A stretch of 34,888 nt of DNA from positions 1-34,888 of the forward strand of contig JAMWDF010000002.1 of assembly GCA_023818865.1 (NCBI GenBank), given 5' to 3'. The DNA comes from Candidatus Omnitrophota bacterium. Its GTDB lineage: Bacteria; Ratteibacteria; UBA8468; B48-G9; DSTR01. Positions within the stretch are counted from its first letter, which is position 1, and every line of letters starts with the position of its first letter. This document shows, piece after piece, positions 1 to 34,434 of the stretch. The notes under the pieces were generated by a model that saw only the letters and a program-made list of their open reading frames with translations, was not told the DNA's origin and did no database searches. Both the position numbers and the translations under genes were made by a program.

Positions 1-530
1 AAAATTCCGGCTTGCCCTCCCGGATGCTTCTGGCAAAGAGAACAGATACCGATGTGCCAGGCTTCATCCAGTCCTACATGCATAAACAGAGAAGGGAAGA
101 TGGCCGTCAGTTCTCCCAGGTAATCTTCTAGAAATTGCCTGGTTTTCTGGCTCGAGGGGCAGAAGGTGTCATGATACCGGGCTGGTGTGTCCCAGCGTCC
201 TTGAAGATTGGTAGCGCGCAATTCTGAAAGCGGTTGTAGTTCTGGGAAACTTAAGAAGTGTTCCGCATGAGCCAGTGTCTGAGTGGCAGGAATGATATCT
301 ATGTTTTTTCCAGAGGCATATTCCACTATCTCCCTCATCTCCCCGGCTGAGTAGCTGTCTTTCGCCAAAGGATAGGGGAAATTTGTCGTGCGCACCCGGC
401 CTCCCAGATAAAGGAGCACAGCGTTATAATTGCTTTCAGCGGCAAAACTGATAAAGTTACGGATAAACTCAGGTGTTTCCTTCTGGCGAGCCAGATCAAG
501 CTGAACCGACCGTAGCCGAAAGTTTGCCAT
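1..530 (-). CDS. GH20-like beta-N-acetylhexosaminidase catalytic-domain protein (N-terminus present, gene runs off the window start)
   Basis: Absent from the supplied track because there is no stop in the window. Manual minus-strand translation from ATG 530-528 gives MANFRLRSVQLDLARQKETPEFIRNFISFAAESNYNAVLLYLGG...DTFCPSSQKTRQFLEDYLGELTAIFPSLFMHVGLDEAWHIG. The block CP..TxxFL..v..E....FP....HvG.DE matches the GH20 active-site strand with the catalytic D-E pair. The start lies 15 nt downstream of the preceding gene's stop. No signal peptide. Confidence 0.7.
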   Translation of the reverse strand, partial: MANFRLRSVQLDLARQKETPEFIRNFISFAAESNYNAVLLYLGGRVRTTNFPYPLAKDSYSAGEMREIVEYASGKNIDIIPATQTLAHAEHFLSFPELQPLSELRATNLQGRWDTPARYHDTFCPSSQKTRQFLEDYLGELTAIFPSLFMHVGLDEAWHIGICSLCQKHPGGQAGI

Positions 531-545
531 GAAGTCTAGGCCTTG

Positions 546-3146
546 TTATTTTCCTGTCTCCGGTTCAAGATGAAGCAACACAACTTCTCTTGGAGCCAGA
601 GGAAGAGCAAATCTCTGGAAGAAACTCGCTTCTGCTTTTGTTTGACCATTAACCAGCCCCTGTTTCAAAACAAAACTATCACCTCCAACCAGAGTAACGC
701 TGTATCTTCCGGAAGGCAAATCTAACCCTATAACCGGAACGGCTGGCCTGGATTCCCAGTTAGCCAGATAAAGAATGAAGTTTCCGTCTTCCACCTTTCT
801 GATAAGAAATTCCACCCGGCCATCCGGTTCAAAACGGAGGCCGGTTTCTCCCCTCATTTTTTTAATCAGAGACAGAAGATTTTGCCGAACAGACTTTTTC
901 ATCCCTTGGCGGGCGAGATTAATAGGCTGATAAGCCACATTTTTGCTGTCTAGCAGTCTTTTCAGGAGTGGTTCTGGATAAGGGTTGCCGTACTGGTCGG
1001 TTGAACCTAACTGGTCAAGGATGAGCAGTCTTGACCCGGTTTCCACGGCTTTCTTGATGGCCGCGAAAGATTCTCTGGATAAGGAGTAAGCAAAGGGCAA
1101 GATTAGAAGTTTATATTTTCCAAGGTCATCCAGAGTATCTGGCCTTTCCGCGAAACGAACATCATAGGGAATTCCGTTTTCCAGAAGCAATCCCTCTACG
1201 CACTTGCCTGAAACCATTCCCCGAAATCGCTCGTAGTTTAACTCCCTGGTCCTGGTATCTGTATCTCTTTTCAGCACAGCGGTCAGTTCCTCTATCCTCG
1301 GAAGATAAAGCACTGTTCCCAAGCTGCTGTCACTTACTTGTTCTGATAGCAGTCCTTCCATTTTTACCTCCCACCAATCTTCGGAAGCCCGGGAGAGAAT
1401 CAGGCAGACAGTTGCTGGCGTGTGGCTTTTTCCAATGCCCCATTGTTCCAGCAATCTCATCCTCTGAAAACCAGCGATGACGGTTGGCCGCCATTCTTTC
1501 CAATCCAACATGTAATTTATCCGGTAATTGGAAATATAGCGAACGCCTTCCATCACGGTCGGTAAAATATATCCATACATCTTTATCGGATCGTGCGTTC
1601 CGTTATACGTAATATTAAGCCACTGAATCGCTGCTTCCAGTCGGTCCTTCCCAAAAGCGCCGGCAAATCTCCGACACAAAGCGACATACTTGCCGGTATC
1701 CACTGTCACACCGCCATAGACTGTTCCAGCGTCCACTATTTTGTCGCGTCCAAGAATGTCCAAGGCTACTCCATGTTCCAGTCGGGTGTTGTATAACTGG
1801 ACCATTGCCTGGTTGCCATTGCTGAAAATCTTCAGGTTCGGTTTTAATTTTTTTAGCTTAGCAGCCACATCGTTAAATAGGGCATATAATTGCTCATATT
1901 CAAACAGCTCCCACTTCCTGTACTTTTCATTGTCGCCTGGTTTCTCCGGCAGGGAGGGGTAGCCAAACATGTCTTTAAAAGCCCTGGTGCAGGCAGGACA
2001 GTTGGTTCTGGGCAGGTTGTGGCCTTTGAAATAGTATTCGTCAGGCATAAGGTAAAGGCCATCAACTCCCTGAGCCACTGCTTCTGAAAGGAGCCAAAGC
2101 CACTTATCATGGAAATCGCTTTCGCTAATTACACAGGGATATTTCTCTGGGTAATACTGCCTTATCTCTTCTCGGTCAACAAACCGGTCGCTTTGCTCAT
2201 AAGGATAATCCCATCTCCTCCAGGGCATAGGTGCTATCTTGTCTGCCTTTTGGAATGGTGTAATCCAGGCATGAGTGAAGAAGTAAACCTTAAATCCTTC
2301 TTTATGCAGGGCGTCCACATAAGCTTTCAGGACATTCTTCTCAGTATGCGGACCGAGGTTCGTTGGCCAAGGAATGCGGTTATCACAACAACTGGTTTCG
2401 GAAAAGATTCTTACGCCGGTGGCTTCAACCAGCTTTAAACTTTCCACCAGGGTCCGGAAAGACTTGAAAGAATTTAGGTCTTCAGGCAAGTTGGAACCAT
2501 TCTGTTGGAGCCCGGCATGCCAGAAGTCGGTGCAGATAATGTTTTCAATATTCCGCACCTGCATCTTTGGTGGTCTTACCGCTTGGCCAGGAGTAATTCT
2601 GTTTTGGGGCAGCACTTTTTTCCCTGGGTCCAGGTTAACCTTAGTGGTGGTGTAAATTTCTACCTCACGAAACTGCGGAAAGGGACAGCGGTATCCGGCG
2701 TTGCCGGTCAGCGCCAGAAATTCAAGGCCATATAATTTCTTGTTGATTGGGACGGTGAGCCAGCTTCCAGCGATAATTTCCTGGTTTCTCACTATTTTGA
2801 TGTCTGTTTCAAATTTTCCGTCCCCGTCAATATCACCTGAGAGCTTGAAATCTTTTGCGCCGATTTTCCCCTGAATAAACCGGAAGGCGGTCACCGATAA
2901 AGGTTTCGGGAAATGGATAGAAAAAGTTCCAGCCACTTCCGGGCCACCCTCGTATCTGGAAGCAGTGTTTGGGTTACCGTCACAGAGATTATAAACACAG
3001 GTCATATAAGGATTGGCTGAGACTTCAGCCCAGTGGTACCAATCCAATTTGTAACCGGCTGGCGGCTCAGTTTCCTGCCCCGTCACAGACCTGGTTAGCA
3101 GCAGCCCGAGGATACCCAGGCTACCTACTATTTTCCCCTTGATCAT
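546..3146 (-). CDS. Secreted discoidin/CBM-like domain plus uncharacterised glycoside-hydrolase-like module with a GH42-type C-terminal alpha/beta domain (divergent paralogue)
   Basis: Track ORF 546..3200. I moved the start to ATG 3146, which is preceded by AAGGAGG with 5-nt spacing and gives MIKGKIVGSLGILGLLLT (signal peptide). The N-terminal jelly-roll-like segment (FSIHFPKPLSVTAFRF...REVEIY) contains a DIDGDGKFE Ca-loop-like motif. The C-terminal LLILPFAYSLSRESFAAIKKAVETGSRLLILDQLGSTDQYGNPYPEPLL resembles the GH42 beta-galactosidase trimerisation domain. Homologous to ORFs 3161..5221 and 7331..11356. Confidence 0.6.
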   Translation of the reverse strand: MIKGKIVGSLGILGLLLTRSVTGQETEPPAGYKLDWYHWAEVSANPYMTCVYNLCDGNPNTASRYEGGPEVAGTFSIHFPKPLSVTAFRFIQGKIGAKDFKLSGDIDGDGKFETDIKIVRNQEIIAGSWLTVPINKKLYGLEFLALTGNAGYRCPFPQFREVEIYTTTKVNLDPGKKVLPQNRITPGQAVRPPKMQVRNIENIICTDFWHAGLQQNGSNLPEDLNSFKSFRTLVESLKLVEATGVRIFSETSCCDNRIPWPTNLGPHTEKNVLKAYVDALHKEGFKVYFFTHAWITPFQKADKIAPMPWRRWDYPYEQSDRFVDREEIRQYYPEKYPCVISESDFHDKWLWLLSEAVAQGVDGLYLMPDEYYFKGHNLPRTNCPACTRAFKDMFGYPSLPEKPGDNEKYRKWELFEYEQLYALFNDVAAKLKKLKPNLKIFSNGNQAMVQLYNTRLEHGVALDILGRDKIVDAGTVYGGVTVDTGKYVALCRRFAGAFGKDRLEAAIQWLNITYNGTHDPIKMYGYILPTVMEGVRYISNYRINYMLDWKEWRPTVIAGFQRMRLLEQWGIGKSHTPATVCLILSRASEDWWEVKMEGLLSEQVSDSSLGTVLYLPRIEELTAVLKRDTDTRTRELNYERFRGMVSGKCVEGLLLENGIPYDVRFAERPDTLDDLGKYKLLILPFAYSLSRESFAAIKKAVETGSRLLILDQLGSTDQYGNPYPEPLLKRLLDSKNVAYQPINLARQGMKKSVRQNLLSLIKKMRGETGLRFEPDGRVEFLIRKVEDGNFILYLANWESRPAVPVIGLDLPSGRYSVTLVGGDSFVLKQGLVNGQTKAEASFFQRFALPLAPREVVLLHLEPETGK

Positions 3147-3160: not shown

Positions 3161-5221
3161 TTATCTCGCCGGAAAGATATAAAGTATCTTTACTTCCCAA
3201 GGTCTAAGCCCGATCTTAAATCTTGCCAGTTTCTTCGCTTCAATCTCTTTCTGCCTGCCCAGGAGTGCCCTTTTTGCTCCTTCAATGTCTGTCTGAACGA
3301 GCCGAAATTTCCCCTGAGGTAACTTCAGCCCGGCCTGGACCGAGACAGCGCAGTCCATCCAGTTAATAAAGCACAAAAATTTTTCCTGGGCATTTTTTTC
3401 CAGGCAGGCAAATTCTACATCGTCTCGGTCAGGCTGAAAGTAGCAGGTTTTCTTATCTCCGAGGAGTTTGTCCACCAGTTTAGCCATTTTCGCCTGGACT
3501 TCTGGATAGTGCCCAATAACTGTCAGGTCTTCTCCAAAATAGAATATTTCCCTGGAGGCCACCAATTTCTTAAGCAGCGGTTCAGGGTAGGCAGTACCAT
3601 ACTCATCGGTTTCTCCCAGGCCACCCAGCACCAGAATCTTCTTACCGCCTTCAGCCGCCTGTCTTATAGCGGCCAGAGCCTTCTGGCTAACACTGTAAGC
3701 GAAAGGGATAGCTACCACCTGGAATTCATTGATATCCTGCCAGTCTTCCGGATGGTCAAGATACCTCATCTGGTATGGATACCCATGGGAAAGAAGGAAT
3801 TCATGGAGCCATTTTTCATAAACAAACCCCCTGGTCTGGTCAGCCGGATTTCCTTGAGGGTGGTATCTTTGTCTTACCTGCCACCAGTCTTCAGAAGACC
3901 GGGAACGTAGCACCAGTATCTGTTTCGGTATTTTTGCTTCTCTTATTCCCCAGGTCGCTAGAGTGTCCAGAATGGAAAAAGCTTTTTCAACATAGCGATT
4001 ATAACCGCCGTGAAAGATAAAGTTGTATCGCCAGAAGGAAACAATGCTGGCTCCATGCATTACCGCGCTGAGGACCGGACCGTAAATATAGACAGGTGTA
4101 CATTCCAGATAGTAACCTGGATGTTTCATTGGGTCACTTGCCCAAGGACAGTTGTGGGTGGTGATAACCTCGCGGGGGAAGTTGGCTGCTTTCGCTCGCT
4201 TGACATTAGCGGCTGTCTTCCAGTGGTTGAGGTTGGTGTTGTCCTCATAAGCGCTGGCGTGGTAATAATCCACCAGGGCGGTGTGTCCAATGATATCATC
4301 AGCCACTCCCCAGTCCTGCCTTGTGTTCCAGGCAGTATCCAGGACAGTCAACTGAGTGAAGGTTTTAATCCGGGGATTAGCCTTTTTCGCTTCTCTGGCT
4401 GCTCCAGCAATGTAGTCAGCAAATTCTTCATAGGCAAAAACAATCCATTTTCTGAAAGATTCTGTGTCTCCTGGTTCTTCAGGAAATGGTACCTGGTACC
4501 TTTTCTCAAAGGCTTCCCGGGTAACTCTGTCGGCTGATTTTGGATACCGGAGGGCAGTCCAGCATTGCTCGTCATAGCCACACCCAACACCATCAACTTC
4601 ACTTGCGGCCTGTTCCCTGACAAACCCTTCCAGGAATTCCCGGCTGTACCTGGAAATGTAAGGAGCCGGTTGGTTCCTGGTGGGGGTGAGCGGAAATTCC
4701 TCCAGTTCTTTCGGATACACGCACCGGTCCATGGTGAAAAATATAATTCCATTTTTCTTGAATACACCGGCTAACTCCTGGAGAATATTTTCTTCCATGG
4801 ACCATCTATCATACTGACTCGGCCAGAGAACATCAGCTTCGTAGGTCCCTTTTCCTCTGGGGCTCTCAATGTTTCTTGGTGGCCAAAGATTGACGTAATT
4901 GGCTCTGATTTTCTTCAGGTTAGCTATAAAATCAAGCAGCGGTTGATACTGGTCTAAAGTTGGTCTCTTCTCCTTTGGAATTTTCAGCCAGCCAAGGATG
5001 TTGAACATCCAGGGCTCAATGTGAAAACCTTTGCCGAGCGGCTGATCAGGAATCTGGATAAGAGACTTTCTCTCTTCTTCGGTTAACTCCGCAGCAGACC
5101 AAGAAATGGTTTCACTCTTCCCAGTTTCGGAGAAAAACAGAATAAAGAAACAGAAGGTTATAACTTTCCTCCAGCCCTGGTATTTCTGCCTCAAATTTTC
5201 CAGTGAGCCATTAGCCAACAT
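3161..5221 (-). CDS. Uncharacterised glycoside-hydrolase-like protein (TIM-barrel-like module plus GH42-type C-terminal domain), exported or membrane-anchored
   Basis: 686-aa ORF with ATG at 5221 and a GAGGA upstream. It has an N-terminal hydrophobic segment, VITFCFFILFFS. It aligns along nearly its whole length with the C-terminal ~640 aa of ORF 7331..11356. Example: GFHIEPWMFNILGWLKIPKEKRP...PRGKGTYEADVLWPSQYDRWS versus GFHIEPWMFNILGWLNTPKEKRP...PRGKGTYESDVLWPSQYDRWS. Both also carry ILVLRSRSSEDWWQVRQRY. Confidence 0.6.
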   Translation of the reverse strand: MLANGSLENLRQKYQGWRKVITFCFFILFFSETGKSETISWSAAELTEEERKSLIQIPDQPLGKGFHIEPWMFNILGWLKIPKEKRPTLDQYQPLLDFIANLKKIRANYVNLWPPRNIESPRGKGTYEADVLWPSQYDRWSMEENILQELAGVFKKNGIIFFTMDRCVYPKELEEFPLTPTRNQPAPYISRYSREFLEGFVREQAASEVDGVGCGYDEQCWTALRYPKSADRVTREAFEKRYQVPFPEEPGDTESFRKWIVFAYEEFADYIAGAAREAKKANPRIKTFTQLTVLDTAWNTRQDWGVADDIIGHTALVDYYHASAYEDNTNLNHWKTAANVKRAKAANFPREVITTHNCPWASDPMKHPGYYLECTPVYIYGPVLSAVMHGASIVSFWRYNFIFHGGYNRYVEKAFSILDTLATWGIREAKIPKQILVLRSRSSEDWWQVRQRYHPQGNPADQTRGFVYEKWLHEFLLSHGYPYQMRYLDHPEDWQDINEFQVVAIPFAYSVSQKALAAIRQAAEGGKKILVLGGLGETDEYGTAYPEPLLKKLVASREIFYFGEDLTVIGHYPEVQAKMAKLVDKLLGDKKTCYFQPDRDDVEFACLEKNAQEKFLCFINWMDCAVSVQAGLKLPQGKFRLVQTDIEGAKRALLGRQKEIEAKKLARFKIGLRPWEVKILYIFPAR

Positions 5222-5399
5222 CTGCAGAAGGTCCTCAAGAGATCAAGAACCCAGACCGTAGGTCAAAGCAAGTAAGTCAGTCGAGACATAGCCTTCAGTC
5301 GTATTTGGGATTTTCCCTACTCAAGCCGCCCATACCTCAATGACGCCAGGGCCTACATTTTGATTTTCTGCCTGGGGCTCATCTTTGGATAACACCCTT

Positions 5400-7334
5400 T
5401 TAGCATCTTCCCTTTATCTTGCTCACTCCAGGCGCCTGATACCTTTTCCCGTTCAGGAGATAAGCCCCGGAGGAGAAATCTACTTCTACTTCAGTTCCAT
5501 CGCTAAAGACTGTCTGCTGAACCTGGCCAGCTTCTTCCAGCATTTTCCAGTCAATCATGGCTTCAAAACCTACTTTTTCCGAGAGCCCTTGAAGAGGCTT
5601 CAAGTCACGGACAAACTCTGCTGAAGACTTCCGGTAAGGGGAAAAATTGCACTCAAAGCCCTCGGGTCGCACTGAAGGGATGCCTCCCCAGAGCATCCCC
5701 CAGAGAAAAGCATCTTTTGGGTTTTTTTGGTCTATCCATGAAGGAACCACCAGGCAGTCATGCCAGACAAGAGCGTATAAGGGAAAAGGAATACCCAGGG
5801 GTTTATTTTCAAGCTTCTTCCGCAGATCAAAGGGACAGTTTCCTGGATGGACAGTATGGCAGAAGTCAAGAACAGGTATTGCCCAGTCGGCCCCGCCTTC
5901 AGAACTGGTGACCCAGCCAAATTTCTGGCAGAAGGCAAAGATTTCCGTCCAGGCTTTCCTGGTTTGACTTCTGGCGGAAAGGTGTTTCTGGTCGTAGCAT
6001 TCCCGCAGGTGGCTGAAAGTGAAACAATCAAGGTAGGTGGCAGAGGGACGGACTCTTTTTTGAATTTCAGACAGGTTGCGCCGGACAAACTTCATCGTTT
6101 TCTGCGGGCAAAGCCACTGCTGTCTTCCGCCAAGCCATTCATTATTTTCCGGCCTCACCCCGCTTAAATCAAGCACAGTTACCTCCGGGCCAAAGGATTT
6201 GCTGTCAGCATAAATGTCCACATAATTGTCATGAAGCAGAAAAAGATGACCCGAAGATTGAATAACCCTGGCCATCTTCACCAGACCATTCCAGCCGCCT
6301 ATTTTAGGATCCGGAGGAAGAATATCTGGATGGAGACAGTCATAACCCTTTCTTCCCCAGCCGTCAACATGGACTACCACCTTTTCTAAGCCAGCCTCTT
6401 TCTCCAGCTGCTTGAACCTTCTCAACCCTTCGGAAAAAGACATTCGCTGCCAGACATTTTTTTTCCTGAACCGGCCAAACCAAGATTCATGCCAGATATT
6501 GATAACGATGGCTCCGGGCAACTTAGCCACATTTGGTCTTTCTCTGGCTTTTTCTTTCAAGGTGAGAGCCAGCCCTTTACCGGCGGCATGTTGGCGATAA
6601 ACTTTGGCGATTTCTGGCAGGCTGATTTTGTTAAAAAATTTGTACTTAATGCTTCTTGGGTATCTGAAATTGCCCAGGCTGGCTAACCACCAAGGATGGA
6701 CAGTATGGCCATATTCTGGCTCGGTAACTACCCGAAAAGCGATGTCATCAGTAGTTTCTGGCAGGGCGACCATTGCCTCTCCAGAATCCGTTATCTGCGC
6801 CCACCAGGGCATCACGAAACCCATTCCCGCATAGGCAGGAAAAGTATGGGCAAGTTCTACCGGGAAATTCTTATCAAGGAGACACCCCTGTCCGTAAGGA
6901 AGAACGAGTTTGCCTCTAACCTTTTTCGGAAAAAGGAAGCCTCGGGGATAAGCACTGTCAATAAAAGAAGCTTCTCCTCGACCATTGCGGGTGCTTACAA
7001 TAATTTTCAAGGTGTCATAATCCAGATGAAAAGCCACTTCCACTGCAAAATCAAGATAACTCCAAACATTTGGTCTGTAAGGCCAACAGGAAAGCGTTAC
7101 CTTCCGAAAACAATTGTTTCCTTCCCAATTAATCTGCTGAGCCGAACTAAAAGGCAATCCTTCCCGAGGACCAGAATGCCCCTGAATGCCGATATCTCCT
7201 GGCCCGGTGGGCTGCATCAGCCAGCCCAAACCTGTTCTCAGGTCCAGTACATTGACTGAAAGGTTTCTTTGGTCTATCTCCACCTCAAGAAGTTGGTTTC
7301 TTATCTTGATTTTCCTGTTTTTCCATGGTCTCAT
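5400..7334 (-). CDS. Putative cytoplasmic glycoside hydrolase, GH101/GH129-like (DUF5696-type) (beta/alpha)8 protein
   Basis: 644-aa ORF. The ATG at 7334 overlaps the upstream stop (7331-7333) as ATGA. No signal peptide. The segment VHVDGWGRKGYDCLHPDILPPDPKIGGWNGLVKMARVIQSSGHLFLLHDNYVDIY resembles the DGW...G(H/Y)D..(H/Y)PD...P....GG...L......G....G.H.N block I recall from GH101/GH129 enzymes. The family assignment is from memory only. Confidence 0.45.
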   Translation of the reverse strand: MRPWKNRKIKIRNQLLEVEIDQRNLSVNVLDLRTGLGWLMQPTGPGDIGIQGHSGPREGLPFSSAQQINWEGNNCFRKVTLSCWPYRPNVWSYLDFAVEVAFHLDYDTLKIIVSTRNGRGEASFIDSAYPRGFLFPKKVRGKLVLPYGQGCLLDKNFPVELAHTFPAYAGMGFVMPWWAQITDSGEAMVALPETTDDIAFRVVTEPEYGHTVHPWWLASLGNFRYPRSIKYKFFNKISLPEIAKVYRQHAAGKGLALTLKEKARERPNVAKLPGAIVINIWHESWFGRFRKKNVWQRMSFSEGLRRFKQLEKEAGLEKVVVHVDGWGRKGYDCLHPDILPPDPKIGGWNGLVKMARVIQSSGHLFLLHDNYVDIYADSKSFGPEVTVLDLSGVRPENNEWLGGRQQWLCPQKTMKFVRRNLSEIQKRVRPSATYLDCFTFSHLRECYDQKHLSARSQTRKAWTEIFAFCQKFGWVTSSEGGADWAIPVLDFCHTVHPGNCPFDLRKKLENKPLGIPFPLYALVWHDCLVVPSWIDQKNPKDAFLWGMLWGGIPSVRPEGFECNFSPYRKSSAEFVRDLKPLQGLSEKVGFEAMIDWKMLEEAGQVQQTVFSDGTEVEVDFSSGAYLLNGKRYQAPGVSKIKGRC

Positions 7335-10300
7335 TGTGTTCCCTTAACGTAAAGGATTTTCATTTCCCAGGGTTCAAGCGAAACGAGAAATTGCTGAAGG
7401 TCACTGGACGCGATCTTTGTCTCTGGGCCGATGACCGCTTTTCGTACCCCATCCAGATCCCGAAGAAAAGCCTCATACGTTCCCGGTGGCAGGTTTAAAC
7501 CTGCGGTTACCTTTATCGCTCGGTCTGTCCAGTTAAGAAGGAGGACAAACTTTTCCCGGTCTCCCTTTTCGATTATTGCTGTTTCCACATCATTGCCCTC
7601 ACTGTTGAAGAAAAATAATTTTCTCGGCCCCAGCAATTTATCAATTTCCTTCTGAAAATTTGCCAGAAAATCAGGGTTATGCCCAAGAGAAACTATGTCT
7701 TCTTTTACTAGCAGTGCTTTGCCGGAAGAGACCATCCCTGAGAAAAGTGGAACAGGATAAAAATTTCCCCACTCATCGGTTTCTCCTTGCCTGTCCAGTA
7801 GCAAGATTTTTGTCCCGGCTTCGGCTGCCTTTTCAATTTTCTGGAAGGCTTCCCGGCTGATACTGTAAGGGAAGGGGAGTATCACCAAAGGATAGGCAGA
7901 AATTTCTGAGGCGAAATCTTCCGGATGCTCAAGGTAATAAATCCGGAATGGGTAGCCGTGGCTCAAAAGAAATTCTAATAGCCATTTCTCATAAATAAAT
8001 CCTCTGGTCTGGTCAGCTGGATTACCTTCTGGGTTGTACCGCTGTCGCACCTGCCACCAGTCTTCAGACGCTCTTGACTTCAGCACCAAAATTTGTCTGG
8101 GAATTCTGGCTTCTTTTGCTCCCCAGACAGCCAAAGTATCAAGCAGAGAGTAAGCCTGCTCAACGTACTTTTCGTAACCCCCGTAAAATATGAAGTTGTA
8201 TCTCCAGTAAAGCGGCAGACGACCGCCATGCATAAAGGAAACTACCGGTGGTCCATACATCCAGGCAGGAGTGGTATCAAGGTAGTAACCAGGGTATTTC
8301 ACCGGGTCATTCGCCCAGGGACAATTGTGGAGAGAGGCAGGGGCTCGGCCGCGGTTAGCCCCCAGCATTCTAAGAGTATTGGCGGCTGACACGAAGTGGT
8401 TCAAATTACCGTAATTTTGATAGCAGTAAGCTCGGAAAAAATCTATGTCAGCCATGTGTCCGACGATATCCTCGGCAATGTTTAGGTCAATCCTTCCGTT
8501 CCACAAATTTCCTAGGCAAACATGCACAGGCGTTTTGGTAAACACTTCTGGATTGGCTGCTTTTGCCGCGGCGGCAGCTTCAGCTAAATAAGAGGCGAAC
8601 TGTTCGTAACCGAAGATAATCCATTTTCTAAAAGCTTCAGTGTCTTCCATTTTGTCCGGCACTGGAAGGTTGTATTTCTTCTGGAAGGCTTCCCGGGTGG
8701 CTTCATCCACATTCGCCGGATTGCGTAACCCTCCCATCTGTTCGTCATAGCCGATTCCCACTCCATTGACTCCACTTTTCACCTGTTCCAAAACAAAACC
8801 CTTCAAGAATTCCCGGGTGTGTCTGGAAATGTAAGGGGCTGGTTTATCCCGAGTGTCGCTGGGTGGAAATTCTTCTAATTTTTTTGGGTAGACACACCGG
8901 TCCATAGTAAAAAGTTTGAGGCCACTGGCCTGGAAAACTTCCGCAATCTCCTTCAAGGCATTTTCGGTTAGAGACCATCGGTCATACTGACTAGGCCAGA
9001 GAACATCAGATTCGTATGTTCCTTTTCCCCTGGGCACCTGGATATTTCTGGGCGGCCACATATTCACAACATTGGCGTGATATTTCTTGATGTTCGTCAC
9101 AAAATTAAGGAAAGGCTCGTATTCTCTCAGAGGGGGTCGTTTTTCTTTTGGGGTATTGAGCCAACCCAAAATGTTGAACATCCAAGGTTCAATATGAAAC
9201 CCTTTTAGAACTTCCTCTTTTGGCTCCGGTGTCCTGAGGGTTATCGGTTCGCCGCCTTTGATTTCAGGGATGTTTTTCGGAGTCGGGGCAGCCGGTTTCC
9301 AAGTAGTCTGTTTCTTGGGAACGAGGATCTGGACGTCATAATAGCGGGGGGGGCCAAAAGTGGCCAGGAGAATTCCGGATACATTCTGAACTGATGGCTG
9401 GAAGGTGTTTTTTATCCAGGTCCTTGCCTTCCAGACACCACCGGGGTTGGTAATTTTTCCTTCCAAATCAGCCCGCAATAGTTTTTCGCAAACCCCATCA
9501 CCATTGGTATCAACGAGAATTGCCCAGGGACCAGAAGGTACCGCCCAGTTAATAGCCACAATCTCCTGGGGAGTATCAAAGTGGAAATAATATCTTGCAG
9601 TTTTTACTGGAGTTCCTTTTTCTGGTTCAGGCATGGTGCGCAGTTTTTCATCAGGGTCAACAAGAAGTCGCACCATCGTCGTGTAGGGAATAGTCCTAAT
9701 CTTGGCCGCAGGGGCGATATTCGCCAGTTCCAGACCTTTGGGTAGTTCAGGTCCAATCTGGTTATGGATGAGGGTCACCACACCAGGCAATGCCTCTGGT
9801 GCTACTGCCGGTTTAATCTCAGGAAACTGGTCTTTTGTCAGCGGCCCTTGAAGTTTCAAGCCAACATCATGGATTTCATAGTGGGCATACCTGGTGTCTC
9901 TAACTACCCCCAGCCAGAGCTCCCCACCTTCTTTGGTTTCCAATATTCCCTGGGATAGCTTGAATGTTCCGTTAACCTCCAGCGGTGCCTTGGTTATTGT
10001 GAGAGTACTGGCTGGTTTGTCCACTGTGAGGGAGGGAAAGATACTGGAGTAAGAATCTTTGGCTACTGTCCCGCCGGATTCAATTGTGGCTTTTTGAGGA
10101 CCGGTAAAGACAATCTGGGCTTTCTTCCCGAAATTCAGGCGAAAAGAATCTGTCCTTGGTTTTTCCGGCACAGGGGGAAGAAAGCAGGACCCAGTTATGG
10201 TAAGAACATTTTCCCCGAGATTGAAACTACCTACCTTGAAAAGGACGTCTCCCTGGATAGTCAGATTGCCTTCTTGGGTGACAGAATAAGCATAGTTTCC

Positions 10301-11356
10301 GGTATCAACAGTAAGCCCGGTAAAGATGGCTTCTTTTGGTTTCAGCCTCGCATGATAGCAACCGGAAGAAAAAACCAACCTGGGTCGGCCAATAATTTCG
10401 CCCTCATTAATCAAACCACGGCAATGGCTGACAATTCCTGACCCGCCAAAGGTAATGACAGAAACAGCGCTGGCGTCCAGGATGGCATCTTTCTCAATCT
10501 TTAACCCAGCACAGGCAAGATTACCTTTCAATCTGACGGTAGTGCCAGAACTTACACCCAGAGGTGGTAAAATCGCTTTGTTCCCGGTCACCTCCACCAG
10601 ATGGGTTTCTTTTCCCAAAAAAATTACCCAGGATTCTTCTTTTTCCTTTCCTCCACCACAAACCGCAGAGTCATCACTAAAAAGATTGCCGTTAAGGAAA
10701 ACCTGGCCTTCCATAGCCAGACTGGCAGAACTTTCCTTCCCTCCTGAAAAAGCAAGGTCCCCCTGAATGGTCAGGGTAACGCCCCGGGGAACAAAAAGGC
10801 CATGCCCGTTAAGAATTAGGTTGCCGGTAAGAGTTAGACTGTCAGTCAGAGTCACCCTGTAACTGTAAGAACCGGGAGGTAGAGTCAGAGAAGAAAAACT
10901 TGCTCCCCCAGCTTTAATCGCTGCATGATAACAGTATCCAGCAAGCACCAAAGCCGGTGTACCGACAATTTTCCCAAGATTGGTAAGCCCGCCTGGCCCA
11001 ACAGTGATAATAGAGTTTCCGTGAGAAGCATCAAGTGTTCCTTCAACCAAGATACCTTTTTTCTCTGAAGGTTGAAGATTTGTAAGTTTTAAATTATGTC
11101 CGGCCAGAGTGAGCCTGGCATTTTTTTCAATGACTAAAGAACCATCAACCGCTGCATCAGCAGTCAGCACAGGGTAGTTGGCCACGCCTCCAGAGATGAG
11201 AACATCTTTTCCGTCCCGGGCTACCGGCGCCTTTCCTGTGGACCAGTTTTCGCCAGAAAACCAGTCGCTGGTTTTTCCTGTCCACTGATTGGTGCCGGCA
11301 GTCAGCAAGGCGGAAAAGAGGAAACACCAAAGTCCCTGAAAGAGAAAGTATCTCAT
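7331..11356 (-). CDS. Large secreted multidomain protein: autotransporter-type beta-strand/beta-helix N-terminal region, discoidin/CBM-like domain and glycoside-hydrolase-like module
   Basis: 1341-aa ORF with GGAGGACAAGAA-ATG at 11356 and signal peptide MRYFLFQGLWCFLFSALLTAG. The N-terminus NQWTGKTSDWFSGENWSTGKAPVARDGKDVLISGG is typical of autotransporter-associated beta-strand repeat proteins. There are two internal ~110-130-aa repeats. The mid domain has a DTNGDGVCE loop. The C-terminal ~640 aa are paralogous to ORF 3161..5221. Confidence 0.65.
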   Translation of the reverse strand: MRYFLFQGLWCFLFSALLTAGTNQWTGKTSDWFSGENWSTGKAPVARDGKDVLISGGVANYPVLTADAAVDGSLVIEKNARLTLAGHNLKLTNLQPSEKKGILVEGTLDASHGNSIITVGPGGLTNLGKIVGTPALVLAGYCYHAAIKAGGASFSSLTLPPGSYSYRVTLTDSLTLTGNLILNGHGLFVPRGVTLTIQGDLAFSGGKESSASLAMEGQVFLNGNLFSDDSAVCGGGKEKEESWVIFLGKETHLVEVTGNKAILPPLGVSSGTTVRLKGNLACAGLKIEKDAILDASAVSVITFGGSGIVSHCRGLINEGEIIGRPRLVFSSGCYHARLKPKEAIFTGLTVDTGNYAYSVTQEGNLTIQGDVLFKVGSFNLGENVLTITGSCFLPPVPEKPRTDSFRLNFGKKAQIVFTGPQKATIESGGTVAKDSYSSIFPSLTVDKPASTLTITKAPLEVNGTFKLSQGILETKEGGELWLGVVRDTRYAHYEIHDVGLKLQGPLTKDQFPEIKPAVAPEALPGVVTLIHNQIGPELPKGLELANIAPAAKIRTIPYTTMVRLLVDPDEKLRTMPEPEKGTPVKTARYYFHFDTPQEIVAINWAVPSGPWAILVDTNGDGVCEKLLRADLEGKITNPGGVWKARTWIKNTFQPSVQNVSGILLATFGPPRYYDVQILVPKKQTTWKPAAPTPKNIPEIKGGEPITLRTPEPKEEVLKGFHIEPWMFNILGWLNTPKEKRPPLREYEPFLNFVTNIKKYHANVVNMWPPRNIQVPRGKGTYESDVLWPSQYDRWSLTENALKEIAEVFQASGLKLFTMDRCVYPKKLEEFPPSDTRDKPAPYISRHTREFLKGFVLEQVKSGVNGVGIGYDEQMGGLRNPANVDEATREAFQKKYNLPVPDKMEDTEAFRKWIIFGYEQFASYLAEAAAAAKAANPEVFTKTPVHVCLGNLWNGRIDLNIAEDIVGHMADIDFFRAYCYQNYGNLNHFVSAANTLRMLGANRGRAPASLHNCPWANDPVKYPGYYLDTTPAWMYGPPVVSFMHGGRLPLYWRYNFIFYGGYEKYVEQAYSLLDTLAVWGAKEARIPRQILVLKSRASEDWWQVRQRYNPEGNPADQTRGFIYEKWLLEFLLSHGYPFRIYYLEHPEDFASEISAYPLVILPFPYSISREAFQKIEKAAEAGTKILLLDRQGETDEWGNFYPVPLFSGMVSSGKALLVKEDIVSLGHNPDFLANFQKEIDKLLGPRKLFFFNSEGNDVETAIIEKGDREKFVLLLNWTDRAIKVTAGLNLPPGTYEAFLRDLDGVRKAVIGPETKIASSDLQQFLVSLEPWEMKILYVKGTQ
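10150..11060 (-). repeat. Internal tandem duplication at protein level within the 1341-aa ORF (two beta-helix-like modules)
   Basis: Module A is LDASHGNSIITVGPGGLTNLGKIVGTPALVLAGYCYHAAIKAGGASFSSLTLPPGSYSYRVTLTDSLTLTGNLIL...VTLTIQGDLAF. Module B is LDASAVSVITFGGSGIVSHCRGLINEGEIIGRPRLVFSSGCYHARLKPKEAIFTGLTVDTGNYAYSVTQEGNLTIQGDVLF...VLTITGSCF. Shared landmarks are LDAS, I.G.P.LV, CYHA, Y.Y.VT and LTI.G. Boundaries are approximate. Confidence 0.5.
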
Positions 11357-11412: not shown

Positions 11413-12216
11413 TTAATACACCGCGTCAGCCGGCGGCGCTCCGCCTGTTTGACTGGAATAATCATCAAAGGAGCGAGACTGCTGATACATACCCCAGTAG
11501 TGATTCTTAAGAGAAGTCTTCGCCTCCCCAGGGACAATACCAACATGGCCATCTACAAATAAAGCGTTACACTGACCGGCGTGCCGATAACCAAGCTGAC
11601 TCAACTCGTATAGTATCCCGTACCAGGTACTGCTGGCTGCTTCTACAATGAGGATTCTCTCAGAAGGATGGTCAACCCGGGAGCGGAAAACACCGTTGCA
11701 GGTATTGTAACAAGCGGTATTCATTCGGTTCCAGCCGTAACTAGTTCTTGGCGAAGCCCCGCCATAAGGCGGGTAACTACCCAGAGGCTGAGCGGCTCGC
11801 CAGGCACAGGCATAGTCACTCATTCCAGCCCAGTAAGGGTCATCAAAGGGTGGAACCTCGGGGAAAAGGACTCCCCAGGAAGGCAAGGCGGCAGCCATAG
11901 AAGGACACCGGAGCATATCCGGAGTTTTCCTGCTGCCTTCTACATAGCCCATATAAGGCAGACAAACGGTAATCCAGTTACCTTTGCCCTTGCCGGGATA
12001 ATCAGATGTTCCCTGGTAAGGCAATCGGTCATTCCAGTCGCTACAATACATAGCAACCACCTGGCCAATCTGCTTCAAATTGTTCATACAGGAGGCGCCT
12101 TCTGCTTTTTGCCTAGCTTTGCGCAGGGCAGGAAGAAGTAATGCGGCCAGGATAGCGATGATTGCCACCACAACCAGCAACTCAATCAAAGTAAAACCAG
12201 AAATTTTTCTTCTCAT
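11413..12216 (-). CDS. Prepilin-type N-terminal cleavage/methylation domain protein, H-X9-DG (DUF1559-like) pseudopilin
   Basis: GGGAGGAAAGAC-ATG start. The sequence [31 protein letters not shown] has the class III signal with G-F cleavage site and Glu+5. It carries the conserved head C.NNLKQIG. The C-terminal [14 protein letters not shown] is a canonical H-X9-DG. Confidence 0.85.
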
Positions 12217-12230
12217 GTCTTTCCTCCCTG

Positions 12231-13118
12231 TTACGGCATATAAATAAGGGGATTATGCAACCGGCTGATCCAGCCGGTCAATCCTTCTTGTCCGTTGGTG
12301 GCTGGTAGAACATAGAGGGTGTTGCCTTCCTGAACCACTTTCTGAGAAGGTATCCAGCGAACCGCACCGCTGACATAAAGGACGTTGATGCCATCTGTGC
12401 CATGGTTGTTCTCTTGCGTCAAGGTCAGACCAAGAGCGGTTGGGCTAGCTACCTGCTTGTAAACATCTACCGGCGAGGTACCATTATCCCAGCCTTCAAG
12501 ATACCAGTTTGGCGAACCAGCCAGGTTAGCCCGGCCAAAAGTCGCCGCAGGTCGCTGTCGGTCAGCCGCTAGGACCGAATCGTCCTGGGTAGAGCAATTC
12601 CAGCCAGTAGTAAAGTTGTAGGCATGTTCCCGGATGCTATAACTCACCCAGTCATAGGTAGAGATATCGCCGAGTTTACCGTAAGCGTAAGAGCATTCAC
12701 ACAAGATGGCCGGACCTTCTGAGCGGGTGGAGAGATAACCGCGATTGCGCACTCTAACAAGAGCTCGCATATCCATCTTCTGGCTGGGACAGAGAAAGAC
12801 TTCTGGATTCTTGATGTAGCTTACACCACCCAGACTGCCGGTAGAATCTTTACCCAGGAGTTTGTTAAAAGGACGCAGCGTCAAGATATACCAGGAAGCG
12901 GTGGCTGGCCCTCGGTAATCAGGGAACCAGCCGTCATAGTCTTCCGCATACATCCGGAAAGCCAGGCCGATCTGTTTTAGATTGTTCATACAGAGTGCTC
13001 GCCTAGCCTTTTCCCTGGCCTTGCCCAGGACTGGAAGTAACATCGCCCCCAAAATGGCAATGATGGCAATGACTACCAACAGTTCTATCAAAGTGAACCC
13101 TTTTTTCTTTCTCTTCAT
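12231..13118 (-). CDS. Prepilin-type N-terminal cleavage/methylation domain protein, degenerate H-X9-DG-like pseudopilin
   Basis: Track ORF 12231..13142. I moved the start to ATG 13118 (TTGGAGGATTGG-ATG), which removes the overlap with the upstream stop at 13132. The protein begins [31 protein letters not shown] and has CMNNLKQIG. The C-terminal [17 protein letters not shown] has Ser in place of the motif Asp and one extra residue. Confidence 0.8.
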
Positions 13119-13131
13119 CCAATCCTCCAAG

Positions 13132-13971
13132 TTAAAAGACACTTTCTACATTGGGTCCGCGTAGGAAAATCTGGTCATCAAAAGCATCAGTCGGTACCGT
13201 GTCAGTCATGTAATAAGGTCGGTCTCCAGGATAAACAGTAACATTGTAAGCGCAATTAGGTAATGCCGCAGCCGGCACATAACGGTAACCGTCGGAAGCC
13301 CGGTAAGAAGGAACCCAGCGAGCGTCCCCATGAATGTAAAGAACATTTATACCCACCCGACCATGGCTCATCATCCCGGTTAACCGCAGCCGGTAGTAAC
13401 CGCCATACCCGTAAGATTCACGGTTCTGAGTACCTCCGCCGCTATCATCTCCGGTGCTTTTCTTGTCGGCCACTAAAGCATAGTTAGACGATAGGAGAGT
13501 ACCAGCGGCCAACGTGGCTGGGATGGCGGGCTTCTTGGTATTCAGATTGAGAGCATAAGCATAAGAGCAGTGTTCGTACTTCAGATAACCGATGTCAGAT
13601 TTACTCTCATACCGGGAACTGGGACAAATAAAAATTTCTGGGTTGGTTATGTACCTTGGCCCCTCAAAATCTGCATCTGGCGCTGCTGCCGGCCCTCCCG
13701 GTCCAGAAACAATCTGGCCTACCAACAACATCAAGGAACGGGAACACTTGTTCATACCATTGGCATCCCTGGCCAGAGGAAACCAGCCGTCATAGTCTTG
13801 AGCATAGAGATAGAGGGCTACTCCAATCTGTTTCAGGTTAGAAATACAGGCGGCTCTTTTTGCTTGTTCCTGGGCCCTGACCAGCGCCGGAAGCAGCATG
13901 GCAGCTAGGACTGCGATAATAGCCACCACCACCAGTAGTTCAATCAACGTAAACCCCTCAGTTTTCTCCAT
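13132..13971 (-). CDS. Prepilin-type N-terminal cleavage/methylation domain protein, degenerate H-X9-DG-like pseudopilin
   Basis: Track ORF 13132..13980 begins at a GTG that abuts the SD. ATG 13971 sits 8 nt after AAGGAGG. The protein begins [30 protein letters not shown] and has CISNLKQIG. The C-terminal [17 protein letters not shown] has the DG replaced by HG. Confidence 0.8.
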
Positions 13972-14001: not shown

Positions 14002-15024
14002 TTATTCAAAGCCTAAAAGTTTTTCAATGCCCAGGTTGACTACTTCCTGGATAATGCTTTCCCGACCAACCACTCCAGTTTCAATTCTTACCCCTTCTCT
14101 GGGGAACTGTCGGTCATTCACTGACTTTCTCACTTTTTCCAGGAAGGTTTCTCCTACCTTGGCCAAAGCGCCGCCCAGAATAATCATTTCCGGGTCAAAA
14201 AGGTGAATCAGCCGGTTTAGTCCGGTAATGAAACTTGGGGAGGGGTCGCCCTCAGGAGTACGCACCTCTTCCGGGACAATGCCCAGGTTTTCTCCAGCGC
14301 ATCCCTGATAGCCACGATAGATTGAACCGTTTATCAATATTCCAAATCCGATTCCGCTGCTGGTTTTTATAACATAAATTGCCTGGCTTACACCCCGGGC
14401 TATTCCTATCCGGGATTCAGCCAACATCATCATGTTAGCATCGTTTTCCACAATGACAGGTACGCCAAAACGCTTTTCCAGCTCCTTTTTTACCGGGAAT
14501 TTCTGATTTTTTTCCATCCAGAGATATTCGCCAGCCAAACTCACCAGTCCGGAAAGGCTCACGGCTATCCCGAGAAGGTTATTTTGGCCATAAGTTTGCA
14601 ATAGATGATTAATCAAATCTCCGAGTAAATCGCAGGAGAAATTAGTTTTGGAAAGAGAAGAACGATGTTCCATCAGAACTTTGGCGTTTAAATCAGCCAC
14701 AATGCCGTAGGATTCCAGACCGACATCTACTCCTGCGACTACCCCAATCTGGCTCTGAAATTCTACCAGAAATGGATTGCGGCCAACATCGGAATGCGAG
14801 GCCTTCTTCAATCTTACCAGTTTTTTCTCATAAAGCTCCTGGACAATGCTGACTACAGTGGGGTGGCTGAGCCCAGTCCGTTTGGCAATCTCTGGTCTGG
14901 AAATGGGAGAAAATTCTTTGATGGTCAACAGTACCCGGGCATAATTCTGGCGGCGGTGATAATGAAATGAATTGCTGCCTAGCTGTGGCCTGGATAAACT
15001 GAAAACGAGTTCTTCATTTTTCAT
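14002..15024 (-). CDS. ROK-family transcriptional regulator (short form lacking the Zn-binding Cys motif)
   Basis: The N-terminal winged HTH reads ISRPEIAKRTGLSHPTVVSIVQELYEKKLV. ROK sugar-kinase-fold blocks are present: GVDVG, VIVENDANMMMLAE, GIGFGILINGSIYRGYQGCAGENLG and DPEMIILGG. The usual GH....C.CG..GC.E segment after AGE is missing. The protein is 340 aa, against roughly 400 aa for NagC/Mlc-type proteins. Confidence 0.8.
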   Translation of the reverse strand: MKNEELVFSLSRPQLGSNSFHYHRRQNYARVLLTIKEFSPISRPEIAKRTGLSHPTVVSIVQELYEKKLVRLKKASHSDVGRNPFLVEFQSQIGVVAGVDVGLESYGIVADLNAKVLMEHRSSLSKTNFSCDLLGDLINHLLQTYGQNNLLGIAVSLSGLVSLAGEYLWMEKNQKFPVKKELEKRFGVPVIVENDANMMMLAESRIGIARGVSQAIYVIKTSSGIGFGILINGSIYRGYQGCAGENLGIVPEEVRTPEGDPSPSFITGLNRLIHLFDPEMIILGGALAKVGETFLEKVRKSVNDRQFPREGVRIETGVVGRESIIQEVVNLGIEKLLGFE

Positions 15025-15032: not shown

Positions 15033-15061
15033 ATTTTACCAGCCAGGAGTAGTTCTGTCAA
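15033..15061 (-). promoter_or_regulatory. Sigma70-type promoter for the ROK/pseudopilin/GH operon (TTGACA-17-TAAAAT with a TGg extended -10); leaderless or near-leaderless
   Basis: The minus strand reads CAC-TTGACA-GAACTACTCCTGGCTGG-TAAAAT-ACCATAAA-ATG. The -35 is at 15056-15061 and the -10 at 15033-15038. Only 8 nt separate the -10 from the ROK ATG (15024), and there is no SD. Confidence 0.55.
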
Positions 15062-16429: not shown

Positions 16430-17011
16430 TTACCTTGCCTTAGAACAGTCTGACAGACCAAGTGGGTCAATGCCGGTAAAAACAATTTCCCCCTGGGAAG
16501 TGATAAGAATTTCTGCCGGCAAAATATCCTGAAAATCTCTTTGGCTATATCTCCTAGTTAAGAAATGGAAGGTCTTATTGGCAGAACCCTGAAGGTCTTT
16601 AGCCAGTCTCTGTCCTTGGTCATACCGACCAGCAATGATGACATCAATCAGGGAAAATAAAGTTCTTTTTTCTCTCATTTTTATCACCTCTGCCCAACTG
16701 TAGCCGGTGAAAAGAATCACCGAAAGATTAGTCTGGGTCCGGAGAAGACCTAAGAATTCCAGTAGAGGTTTCTTCTGCTGGAGTGGCTCTCCGCCGCTGA
16801 TGGTCACCCCTTCTATCTGCCTGGAATAGCTGGCTATTTTTTCCACCAGGGCTCTCGGTTCAATCAGGTATCCACCTTTCCGGGGATGGGTCGCTGGGTT
16901 ACCACAGCCAGGGCATCCCAGGGTGCAGCCCTGAACCCAGATTACCGCCCGGTAGCCAGGCCCGTTGGCTCGACTGAAAGGGACCCAACGGTGGAGTCTT
17001 AAGGCGGCCAT
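16430..17011 (-). CDS. NrdG-like radical-SAM glycyl-radical activating enzyme (small, single-cluster type)
   Basis: The track start at 17029 is a TTG. ATG 17011 overlaps the dxs stop as ATGA. FSRANGPGYRAVIWVQGCTLGCPGCGNP contains the CX3CX2C motif. GVTISGGEPL is present. LIDVIIAGRYDQGQRLAKDLQGSANKTFHFL parallels E. coli NrdG LINVLVDGKFVQDLKDPSLIWRGSSNQVVHHL. There are no extra ferredoxin-type Cys clusters. Confidence 0.7.
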   Translation of the reverse strand: MAALRLHRWVPFSRANGPGYRAVIWVQGCTLGCPGCGNPATHPRKGGYLIEPRALVEKIASYSRQIEGVTISGGEPLQQKKPLLEFLGLLRTQTNLSVILFTGYSWAEVIKMREKRTLFSLIDVIIAGRYDQGQRLAKDLQGSANKTFHFLTRRYSQRDFQDILPAEILITSQGEIVFTGIDPLGLSDCSKAR

Positions 17012-34057: not shown

Positions 34058-34081
34058 TTTTCTCCTTGTTCCCTTCTCGTT

Positions 34082-34110
34082 ATTATGCTTCCAGGATTTT
34101 CGCCTGTCAA
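34082..34110 (-). promoter_or_regulatory. Sigma70-type promoter for the GH-A hydrolase/patatin operon (TTGACA-17-CATAAT)
   Basis: The minus strand reads TTGACA-GGCGAAAATCCTGGAAG-CATAAT, followed by about 24 nt containing AAGGAG before ATG 34057. Confidence 0.5.
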
Positions 34111-34434
34111 ACAATTTTTTAATTATTTTCCGCCTAAAGATAGCCGAGAAATCTATTTGCCAAAGTGGGGTAAACTATCTTGCTGGCTTTCCGAGGCTGT
34201 GATTTGCTAATGTTTGAAAAATAAGTTTTTGCTCCTTCAAAGGGAAGTGAATTCCAGACCAAGTCGTTAGTCATATAGCCGGAATTAAACTTAGGAAAAA
34301 AGAGGTTTAAAGCACCGAGCAAAGTCCACTTCACTTAAGGAAACAAATAATTCTTCCGGTTTCCAATTCAACCATGTTCACCCTTAGAAAATAGCTCTGC
34401 CTCTATTCAGAAGTTGCATAACGCGCTTTCTAAA

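Follow-up and report, generated by a model that had tools for sequence, protein, structure and literature searches.

The DUF1559 family (PF07596, also listed as SBP_bac_10) is a family of paralogs of unknown function, of which P. limnophila carries 68 copies, including two essential ones (PMC10632474). For Tuwongella immobilis, 91 genes with both an N_methyl and an SBP_bac_10 domain are described, and 25 of the encoded proteins were detected (PMC8567305). Gold-labelled dextran binds to pili-like fibres in P. limnophila and in G. obscuriglobus (PMC5394234), and the very large secreted proteins of Omnitrophota are preceded by loci resembling type II secretion systems (T2SS) or type IV pili (T4P) with many small genes carrying a class III signal (bioRxiv 10.1101/2023.11.21.568195). 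A full-text literature search under the names DUF1559, H-X9-DG and SBP_bac_10 retrieved no functional study, in agreement with an initial interpretation of the DNA made from its letters (called the sequence-only reading here), which had described the function of the family as still unknown. Here, we analyzed the 34,888-bp contig JAMWDF010000002.1 (NCBI label 'Candidatus Omnitrophica bacterium'), which is referred to as the window throughout. It encodes three consecutive DUF1559 proteins, called A, B and C, between a ROK-type regulator gene and a series of genes for glycoside hydrolases (GH), the first of which specifies a protein of 1341 amino acids (aa). A, B and C add new members to a known family, and it is their context rather than the kind of protein that is informative. 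We found no earlier report of the conserved trio-plus-enzyme module and of the quantified cassette pattern described below, and the value of the finding lies there.

Genes A (13971..13132, 279 aa, start MEKTEGF), B (13118..12231, 295 aa, start MKRKKKGF) and C (12216..11413, 267 aa) follow one another on the minus strand. The intergenic spacing amounts to 30 nucleotides (nt) between the ROK gene and A, 13 nt between A and B, 14 nt between B and C and 56 nt between C and the gene for the 1341-aa protein. A GGAGG-type ribosome-binding site is located 5' of each gene from A through the 1341-aa gene. The listing of open reading frames (ORFs) and the sequence itself confirmed that all three proteins begin with a class III signal and a conserved head of the C.NNLKQIG type: a basic stretch rich in Lys and Arg is followed by G/FTLIELLVV with Glu at +5 and Pro at +22, and the signal helix leads into the common motif C-[IM]-[SN]-N-L-K-Q-I-G. 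Searches with hidden Markov models (HMMs) bore out the proposed assignment to the prepilin-type DUF1559 proteins. PF07963 (N_methyl; 29.8-40 bits, cut-off 21.2) and TIGR02532 (27.6-32.7 bits, cut-off 16.3) were passed by all three, and PF07596 scored 29.5 bits for A, 44.6 bits for B and 43.2 bits for C, exceeding the gathering cut-off of 23.3, with a match that in B and C covers just the first ~40-60 profile positions. An HMM built from family members matched A, B and C over their full length (E 1e-47 to 1e-69), and a six-frame scan of the window with this HMM and a pattern for the class III signal returned A, B and C as the sole members. The trio pattern is not due to chance, as judged from the HMM E-values and from the same trio being syntenic in other assemblies. 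Genes for a secretin, a secretion ATPase, a platform protein or a prepilin peptidase are absent from the window, as had been noted from the letters. In the public record of the contig, gene C is annotated as a 224-aa 'hypothetical protein' (NC911_00185) whose start is placed too far downstream, and the class III signal and the transmembrane helix are therefore absent from the annotated protein. Mis-starts of this kind would conceal pilin-like genes from annotation-based surveys.

The three proteins differ in the motif that gave the family one of its names. C carries the canonical H-X9-DG-H motif and matches TIGR04294, the H-X9-DG model, above its cut-off of 19 (21.5 bits, residues 209-225), whereas no match to this model was found in A or B, so that the confinement of the canonical motif to the last gene was reproduced. 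The motif strings originally read for A, B and C agree exactly with the sequence, the motif being H-X10-HG in A and H-X10-SG in B. What is misleading is the description of the A and B motifs as degenerate: they represent instead the signature of a large conserved subfamily, and both genes are subject to strong purifying selection. Common to the 120 best database relatives of A is the consensus H-G-x-x-G-[IV]-N-[VA]-L-Y-V-x-G, i.e. H-X10-xG, in which the x position is occupied by Gly (51/120), Arg (30/120), Asp (9/120) or Ser (8/120) among these 120 best matches. A/B-type and C-type profiles aligned from the N-terminal helix through the motif with a probability of 100% and an E-value of 3e-65, and we therefore consider the two motif types as belonging to a single family. 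At least 90% of the sequences in the C-type alignment have His212, Asp222 and Gly223, and His224 is invariant; the A/B type keeps the first His, the Asn and the Gly and has lost the Asp and the His next to it. At the orthologous Asp position, His, Asn or Asp is found in A and Ser or Asp in B across lineages, and a Gly is present in the C-like protein of a more distant relative (L093, see below). Within a broader sample of the family, the strict H-X9-DG motif was present in 44 of 77 genes, and the Asp was replaced in ~6.

Selection on the three genes was assessed against their orthologs in a second assembly (GCA_964386305.1, locus L001). Synonymous sites were saturated (0.80-0.88 differences per site), while non-synonymous differences per site amounted to 0.09 for A, 0.18 for B and 0.15 for C, making A the best conserved of the trio in this comparison. 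A and B had also been considered as decaying paralogs, an explanation that was ruled out because of the purifying selection and the large conserved H-X10-xG subfamily. Judged from the residues retained, His...Asp-Gly-His may form a metal site in C-type proteins that would be dispensable in the A/B type; that C keeps this putative site and the A/B subfamily lacks it suggests differing roles within a complex. The heads of the family are hypervariable and the N-terminal helices conserved. The family as a whole is very large and very divergent: it comprises 243,248 representative clusters at E<=1e-3, 69,353 clusters (50% identity) at E<=1e-10 and 32 at E<=1e-30.

An AlphaFold2 (AF2) model of C (pLDDT 75, pTM 0.74) consists of a long N-terminal helix (residues 10-60) and a small beta-sheet with strands at 157-163, 188-198, 217-220 and 225-227. 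The H-X9-DG motif is predicted to sit on a beta-hairpin modelled with confidence (residues 217-227). Neither a sequence search of the PDB, nor a profile search, nor Foldseek with the C model retrieved a relative of the head; all matches were confined to the N-terminal helix of type IV pilins, geopilins and GspG, and the Foldseek matches of the C model against the PDB were helix-only with E>0.1. As the PDB matches are limited to the pilin helix, no functional inference was drawn from the fold. A carbohydrate-binding fold or domain was not detected in the heads by Pfam, Foldseek or profile searches. The best match to a full-family NCBIfam model was GspG (TIGR01710), which scored 32.9-38.7 bits over model positions 1-56 of 134 and whose cut-off of 88.85 bits was not reached by A, B or C. 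The three proteins also stayed below the cut-offs of the minor pseudopilin models GspH (26.8-28.5 bits, cut-off 80) and GspI (17.1-19.8 bits, cut-off 44), matching in the helix only, and below those of the competence minor pilins ComGD and ComGE, again with the N-terminal helix only. The Verru_Chthon cassette C and D models (TIGR02599 and TIGR02596) gave 15.6-21.7 bits over the N-terminal ~35 residues, with cut-offs of 256.5 and 70, respectively. The name SBP_bac_10 hints at a solute-binding protein of an ATP-binding cassette (ABC) transporter; this candidate was rejected since permease and ATPase genes are lacking from the operon and from the syntenic loci and do not figure among the most frequent families of neighbours.

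The module is conserved in related genomes. In L001 the order ROK-A-B-C-1341-aa-GH129 is kept, with identities of 86% for A, 74% for B, 76% for C and 71% for the 1341-aa protein (structural genes 71-86%). A more distant Omnitrophota bin (L093, GCA_023819255.1) carries a GntR/LacI-type regulator instead of ROK, followed by the trio in the same order (A-like 46%, B-like 58% and C-like 35% identity) and, downstream, by a 1343-aa ortholog of the 1341-aa protein (47%, full length), an 869-aa ortholog of the 866-aa protein of the window (41%) and GH129 (57%). Two metagenome contigs (L098 and L116) likewise contain trios ahead of 1341- and 1349-aa orthologs. That the order of the trio is kept despite the exchange of the regulator type is as expected of three non-redundant partners of the downstream enzymes. 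The regulator changes faster than the genes that follow it, the ROK protein being 46% identical between the window (14002-15024) and L001 (7196-8224) compared with the 71-86% of the structural genes, and in L093 the regulator (7901-8989) has been swapped while the structural module is intact. A further locus, L094:9001-11243, harbours an A-like (46%) and a B-like (40%) protein and a third DUF1559 protein as a trio without glycan enzymes, which was seen on 18 contigs; the A-B pairing may be older than the link to the present operon.

To place the trio into the context of its family, we surveyed the neighbours of DUF1559 genes in 80 loci from species-representative genomes, mostly of Verrucomicrobiota, Lentisphaerota/Victivallales, Planctomycetota and Omnitrophota, which were retrieved with the family alignment. 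The 88 family genes marked by the HMM fall into 81 clusters, namely 74 singles, 7 pairs and no trio. A GntR/LacI-type regulator is encoded directly upstream and co-oriented in 10 of 45 cases compared with 11 of 928 in the background (odds ratio 24, p=4e-9); conversely, 10 of the 21 GntR/LacI-type regulators of the survey stand immediately ahead of a DUF1559 gene in the same orientation. Among the 45 co-oriented upstream neighbours, Peripla_BP_3 was present in 10 and a GntR helix-turn-helix in 9. On the downstream side, co-oriented neighbours of at least 600 aa were found in 19 of 47 cases (background 13%, Fisher p=5e-6), and an N-terminus resembling a signal peptide was present in 25 of 37 downstream neighbours (background 29%, p=3e-6). 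The survey, which had been proposed in the sequence-only reading, therefore indicates that the linkage of DUF1559 genes with sugar-type regulators and large secreted proteins is not random. A sugar-type regulator as partner was thereby supported, although ROK proteins are the rarer kind and GntR/LacI-type proteins the usual one: none of the 973 ORFs of the survey was ROK-like, and ROK was rejected as the general regulator partner.

Among the Pfam families encoded downstream are beta-helix, DUF4838, heparinase II/III, polysaccharide lyase, sulfatase and rhamnosidase. Many of the proteins encoded there match no Pfam family, and the secreted protein immediately downstream is not always glycan-active. 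At individual loci, DUF1559 genes are paired with GH42, CBM9, CBM4_9 or GH123-type proteins of 860-1360 aa. Locus L006, for example, consists of a GntR/PBP regulator, two DUF1559 genes and a CBM9 protein, while L007 combines a GntR regulator, a DUF1559 gene and a 1133-aa protein, and also shows a DUF1559 gene ahead of a 1350-aa GH42 protein. A DUF1559 gene is found near a 1361-aa GH42 protein in L009 and near a GH123-type protein in L010, and L008:1-11529 contains three consecutive pairs of a DUF1559 gene and a ~905-aa protein without Pfam family. The tandem pairs of L008 adjoin a GntR/PBP regulator and a ROK regulator.

In the window, the run of minus-strand genes begins, after a GT1-like gene, with the ROK regulator (14002..15024, minus strand), which carries an N-terminal MarR-type winged helix (PF00480 4e-27, PF12802 1e-7) and whose best NCBIfam matches, NagC and Mlc, are far under the cut-offs. 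The best sigma-70-like promoter match of the region (15033..15061, minus strand; TTGACA-17-TAAAAT, 11/12, with TG) lies in the 54-nt gap before the ROK start, and a consensus scan found no terminator-like hairpins in the intergenic gaps of the run; the promoter and terminator scans are consensus matches whose totals equal chance expectation. Structured RNAs were not matched by Rfam in the window. The tight co-directional run from ROK onwards, the top promoter match upstream of it and the gaps free of terminator-like sites are compatible with the single transcription unit claimed earlier. The only sizeable intergenic space of the run is a 178-nt gap (5222-5399) between the GH129 gene and the gene for a 686-aa protein, which could hold an internal promoter or regulatory site.

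Downstream of C, the 1341-aa protein (7331..11356, minus strand) starts with a signal peptide and is composed of an N-terminal region of ~700 aa without Pfam match and a C-terminal GH42/GH164-like module of ~630 aa (window positions 7331-9221), of which residues 712-1337 are 56% identical to the 686-aa protein. The latter (3161..5221, minus strand) is a GH42/GH164-like paralogue with a hydrophobic N-terminus or signal peptide, and its AF2 model (pLDDT 86.7, pTM 0.87) gave as top Foldseek matches the three-domain GH164 beta-mannosidase Bs164 (E 2e-18, TM 0.6) and GH42. An 866-aa paralogue (546..3146, minus strand), whose start was set at an internal Met that is followed by a signal peptide, shows 27% identity to the C-terminal module of the 1341-aa protein. 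The three proteins are thus paralogues that all have a signal peptide, and they look like an undescribed glycoside hydrolase family. This family is rare, with 27 proteins at E<=1e-10 among 5.8 billion, none of which has a matching Pfam family. Invariant acidic residues are present in it, e.g. E203, D217-E218 and E444-D445 (numbering of the 686-aa protein).

Two further enzymes complete the run. The 644-aa GH129 glycosidase (5400..7334, minus strand) resembles alpha-N-acetylgalactosaminidases: PF18952 and PF11308 are above cut-off, and residues 143-627 match PDB 5wzn (NagBb, Bifidobacterium) at 1.3e-70. The Asp in YLD and the Glu in SSE are conserved and align with NagBb positions 435 and 478, which we take to be the catalytic Asp and Glu. 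The 5' part of a GH20 (hexosaminidase-type) gene (1..530, minus strand; PF00728 3.5e-14) runs off the window. No signal peptide was found at the N-terminus of the GH129 and GH20 proteins; the GH129 enzyme is accordingly predicted to be probably cytoplasmic, and together the two enzymes would finish GalNAc/HexNAc-type oligosaccharides in the cytoplasm. The description of the downstream genes as secreted glycan-active enzymes consequently stands for the glycan activity and for the three secreted paralogues but not for GH129 and GH20. The presence of GH129, GH20 and the secreted GH42/GH164-like paralogues justifies the term glycoside-hydrolase operon. Transporter genes were not found in the run or in any cassette seen.

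On the best reading of the sequences, A, B and C would be three non-redundant pseudopilin-like envelope proteins, each combining an N-terminal helix similar to that of GspG with an enlarged head that evolves fast. It is plausible, and we propose tentatively, that they act as enzyme-dedicated accessory subunits that export or tether the enzymes encoded with them. The cognate sugar would relieve the regulator, so that prepilins and enzymes are produced at the same time, and a prepilin peptidase encoded elsewhere would cleave A, B and C at G/F. A T2SS or T4P-like machine, also encoded elsewhere, would then pull them from the inner membrane, and the three proteins would form a short hetero-oligomeric pseudopilus (endopilus). 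Its variable heads would serve as a dedicated adaptor that either drives the enzymes across the outer membrane or keeps them attached to the cell surface. The GalNAc/HexNAc-type oligosaccharides released might be imported by a transporter that is not encoded in the run and finished by the cytoplasmic GH129 and GH20.

Several observations weigh against this proposal. The assembly machinery is absent from the window, and processing and filament formation are therefore assumed. The loci of the survey were chosen by similarity to protein C, so that one branch of the family may be over-represented, the gene calls were crude and the test for signal peptides was heuristic. DUF1559 clusters without a secreted or glycan-active neighbour were encountered at L005, L094 and L095, and a docking motif (W-x-G...W...NW) such as that near the N-terminus of the 1341-aa protein was shared by none of the 19 large downstream neighbours. 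Seen from the enzymes, a DUF1559 gene lies directly upstream of just 9 of 70 genes of the GH42/GH164-like family, and with 61 of 70 lacking an adjacent one these enzymes have no intrinsic need of such partners. At L091:8001-11183, a homolog 56% identical to the 686-aa enzyme even occurs in a cluster for polysaccharide/O-antigen biosynthesis without any pilin-like gene. An obligatory coupling of the GH42/GH164-like family to DUF1559 was rejected on the basis of the 9/70 count and of such homologs in biosynthetic or other contexts. The L091 cluster comprises GT4, Wzy_C, GT2, acyltransferase_3, WecG and Glycos_transf_4, and the enzyme family may also trim self-made polysaccharide.

A serious rival, if a rather unlikely one, is that A, B and C build or decorate a surface pilus whose heads bind polysaccharide and hold the substrate near the enzymes or reel it in, as might be imagined by analogy with the planctomycete fibres and with the polysaccharide-binding type IV pilins of cellulolytic Firmicutes. 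The grouping of the genes with glycan enzymes under sugar-type regulators and the hypervariable heads on conserved helices would fit such a glycan-capture fibre, and precedents exist in the dextran-binding fibres of P. limnophila and G. obscuriglobus (PMC5394234) and in the pilus of C. bescii, the expression of which responds to xylan (bioRxiv 10.1101/614800). The cytoplasmic GH129 and GH20 without a transporter in the operon speak in the same direction, since some uptake route is needed; crossing of the inner membrane, however, would still require a transporter, and none is present in the cassettes seen. The heads, moreover, display no detectable carbohydrate-binding fold or domain, and the strongest positional link of DUF1559 genes is to a downstream secreted protein that is not always glycan-active. 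For the same reasons, namely cassettes without a transporter and a tightest link to the secreted protein immediately downstream, the glycan uptake device offered in the sequence-only reading received no direct support.

If A, B and C did not polymerise at all, they could be helix-anchored periplasmic holders, chaperones or scaffolds of the inner membrane for large enzymes, or envelope sensors. Machinery genes are not nearby, the heads of ~200 aa are very large for pseudopilins, and Tuwongella homologues were recovered in the Triton- and SDS-soluble envelope fractions (PMC8567305), all of which would suit a role outside a filament. We nevertheless regard it as distinctly unlikely: Gly-1, Phe+1, Glu+5, Pro22 and the GspG-like helix are strictly conserved, which would be needless for a simple anchor, and in the survey one neighbour is a T2SS F protein and a prepilin peptidase lies 5 kb from the DUF1559 cluster of L095. 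Still less probable is an incidental adjacency, in which the trio would represent spare ordinary subunits of a general T2SS or type IV pilus with no specific tie to the enzymes. The enormous size of the family (69,353 clusters at E<=1e-10, 68-91 paralogs per planctomycete genome) and the clusters located in unrelated contexts make chance neighbourhoods conceivable, but the A-B-C-enzyme order is kept at 35-58% identity even where the regulator type is replaced, the odds ratio of 24 for the regulator and the downstream enrichment for size and signal peptides are hard to obtain in this way, and the scores against GspG, H, I, J and K are far below cut-off and limited to the N-terminal helix.

The proposal of enzyme-dedicated subunits can be extended, with more doubt, to the family at large. 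DUF1559 proteins could conceivably be interchangeable, enzyme-specific pseudopilin modules, arranged in cassettes of a sugar-sensing regulator, one to three pilin-like adaptors and a large secreted enzyme, which plug into one shared T2SS/T4P-like machine and serve polysaccharide use and possibly the digestion of prey envelopes in Planctomycetota, Verrucomicrobiota, Lentisphaerota and Omnitrophota; A-B-C would then be a hetero-trimeric adaptor with a putative metal site only in C. If this were true, the cassettes would be the functional counterpart of the SusC/D-based loci of Bacteroidota and would explain the dozens of paralogs per genome. The adaptor idea, if correct, would likewise show how major environmental and gut polysaccharide degraders without SusC/D deploy their exo-enzymes. 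DUF1559 is among the largest protein families without known function, and the A-B-C locus provides a compact, conserved and regulated module with an identifiable GalNAc/HexNAc-type chemistry. Together with the survey, it makes the function of DUF1559 experimentally testable in terms of secretion, surface tethering and glycan binding. The locus also reveals the rare and unannotated GH42/GH164-like enzyme family.

The remainder of the contig contains additional features. On the plus strand (22797-27491), an amidohydrolase_2 gene and the gene for a 558-aa protein without Pfam family lie ahead of the gene for a glycyl-radical enzyme (PFL-like plus Gly_radical, 717 aa); a radical-SAM/4Fe-4S activase-like gene (16430-17029, minus strand) is located ~8 kb away on the opposite strand. 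The combination, judged by gene content, points to an anaerobic lifestyle. An N6/N4 DNA methylase followed by an overlapping ORF with a weak match to PD-(D/E)XK nucleases (27592-29081, plus strand) may constitute a restriction-modification pair. Proteins resembling BNR/sialidase (29198-30295, minus strand) and GH39 (32693-34114, minus strand) are also encoded, and a pilin-like gene is adjacent to neither.

Compared with GspG and the endopilus, A, B and C share the first 55-60 residues, including Glu+5, Pro22 and an amphipathic part of the helix, but their head is about twice as large and without detectable similarity to solved GspG structures, and their genes lie outside any gsp operon within the 34.9-kb window. 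With GspH-I-J-K and PilV-W-X-FimU, the sets that form tip or priming complexes, the locus has in common that several different pilin-like genes stand side by side in a conserved order, which by analogy suggests a hetero-oligomer of specialised function. A, B and C are not sequence members of these sets, to which they show helix matches below cut-off; they share one head family and are encoded with enzymes rather than with a machine. Among the close known systems is also the DUF1559 family of Planctomycetota, Verrucomicrobiota and Lentisphaerota: A, B and C have the class III signal and PF07596, C has the H-X9-DG motif, and members of that family are likewise scattered outside the secretion loci, beside genes whose products have signal peptides (PMC8567305). 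They differ from it in that the defining Asp and the His after it are missing from A and B, which carry a signature of their own, in that A-B-C is a fixed and conserved trio whereas 74 of the 81 clusters of the survey are single genes, and in that their host is labelled Omnitrophota.

In functional terms, the pilus locus of C. bescii, which is regulated by polysaccharide, and the crateriform-associated fibres of planctomycetes resemble the present locus as pilin-type proteins tied to polysaccharide degradation. Those systems have an identified pilus machinery or visible fibres, whereas the present window encodes no pilus machinery, and the heads of A, B and C are unrelated. The overall layout is reminiscent of the polysaccharide utilisation loci of Bacteroidota, with a specific regulator, non-catalytic envelope proteins, secreted glycoside hydrolases and a final breakdown inside the cell. 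SusC/SusD or TonB-dependent transporter families were not found by Pfam in any gene of the window, and the non-catalytic partners are here pilin-like. Finally, the Omnitrophota giant-protein loci (West-Roberts et al. 2023 preprint) bear the same phylum label and likewise place large secreted proteins with carbohydrate-active or adhesion domains beside pilin-like genes; they include gspD/E/F and giant (>25 kb) genes, neither of which is present here, whereas the A-B-C locus is headed by a sugar-type regulator.

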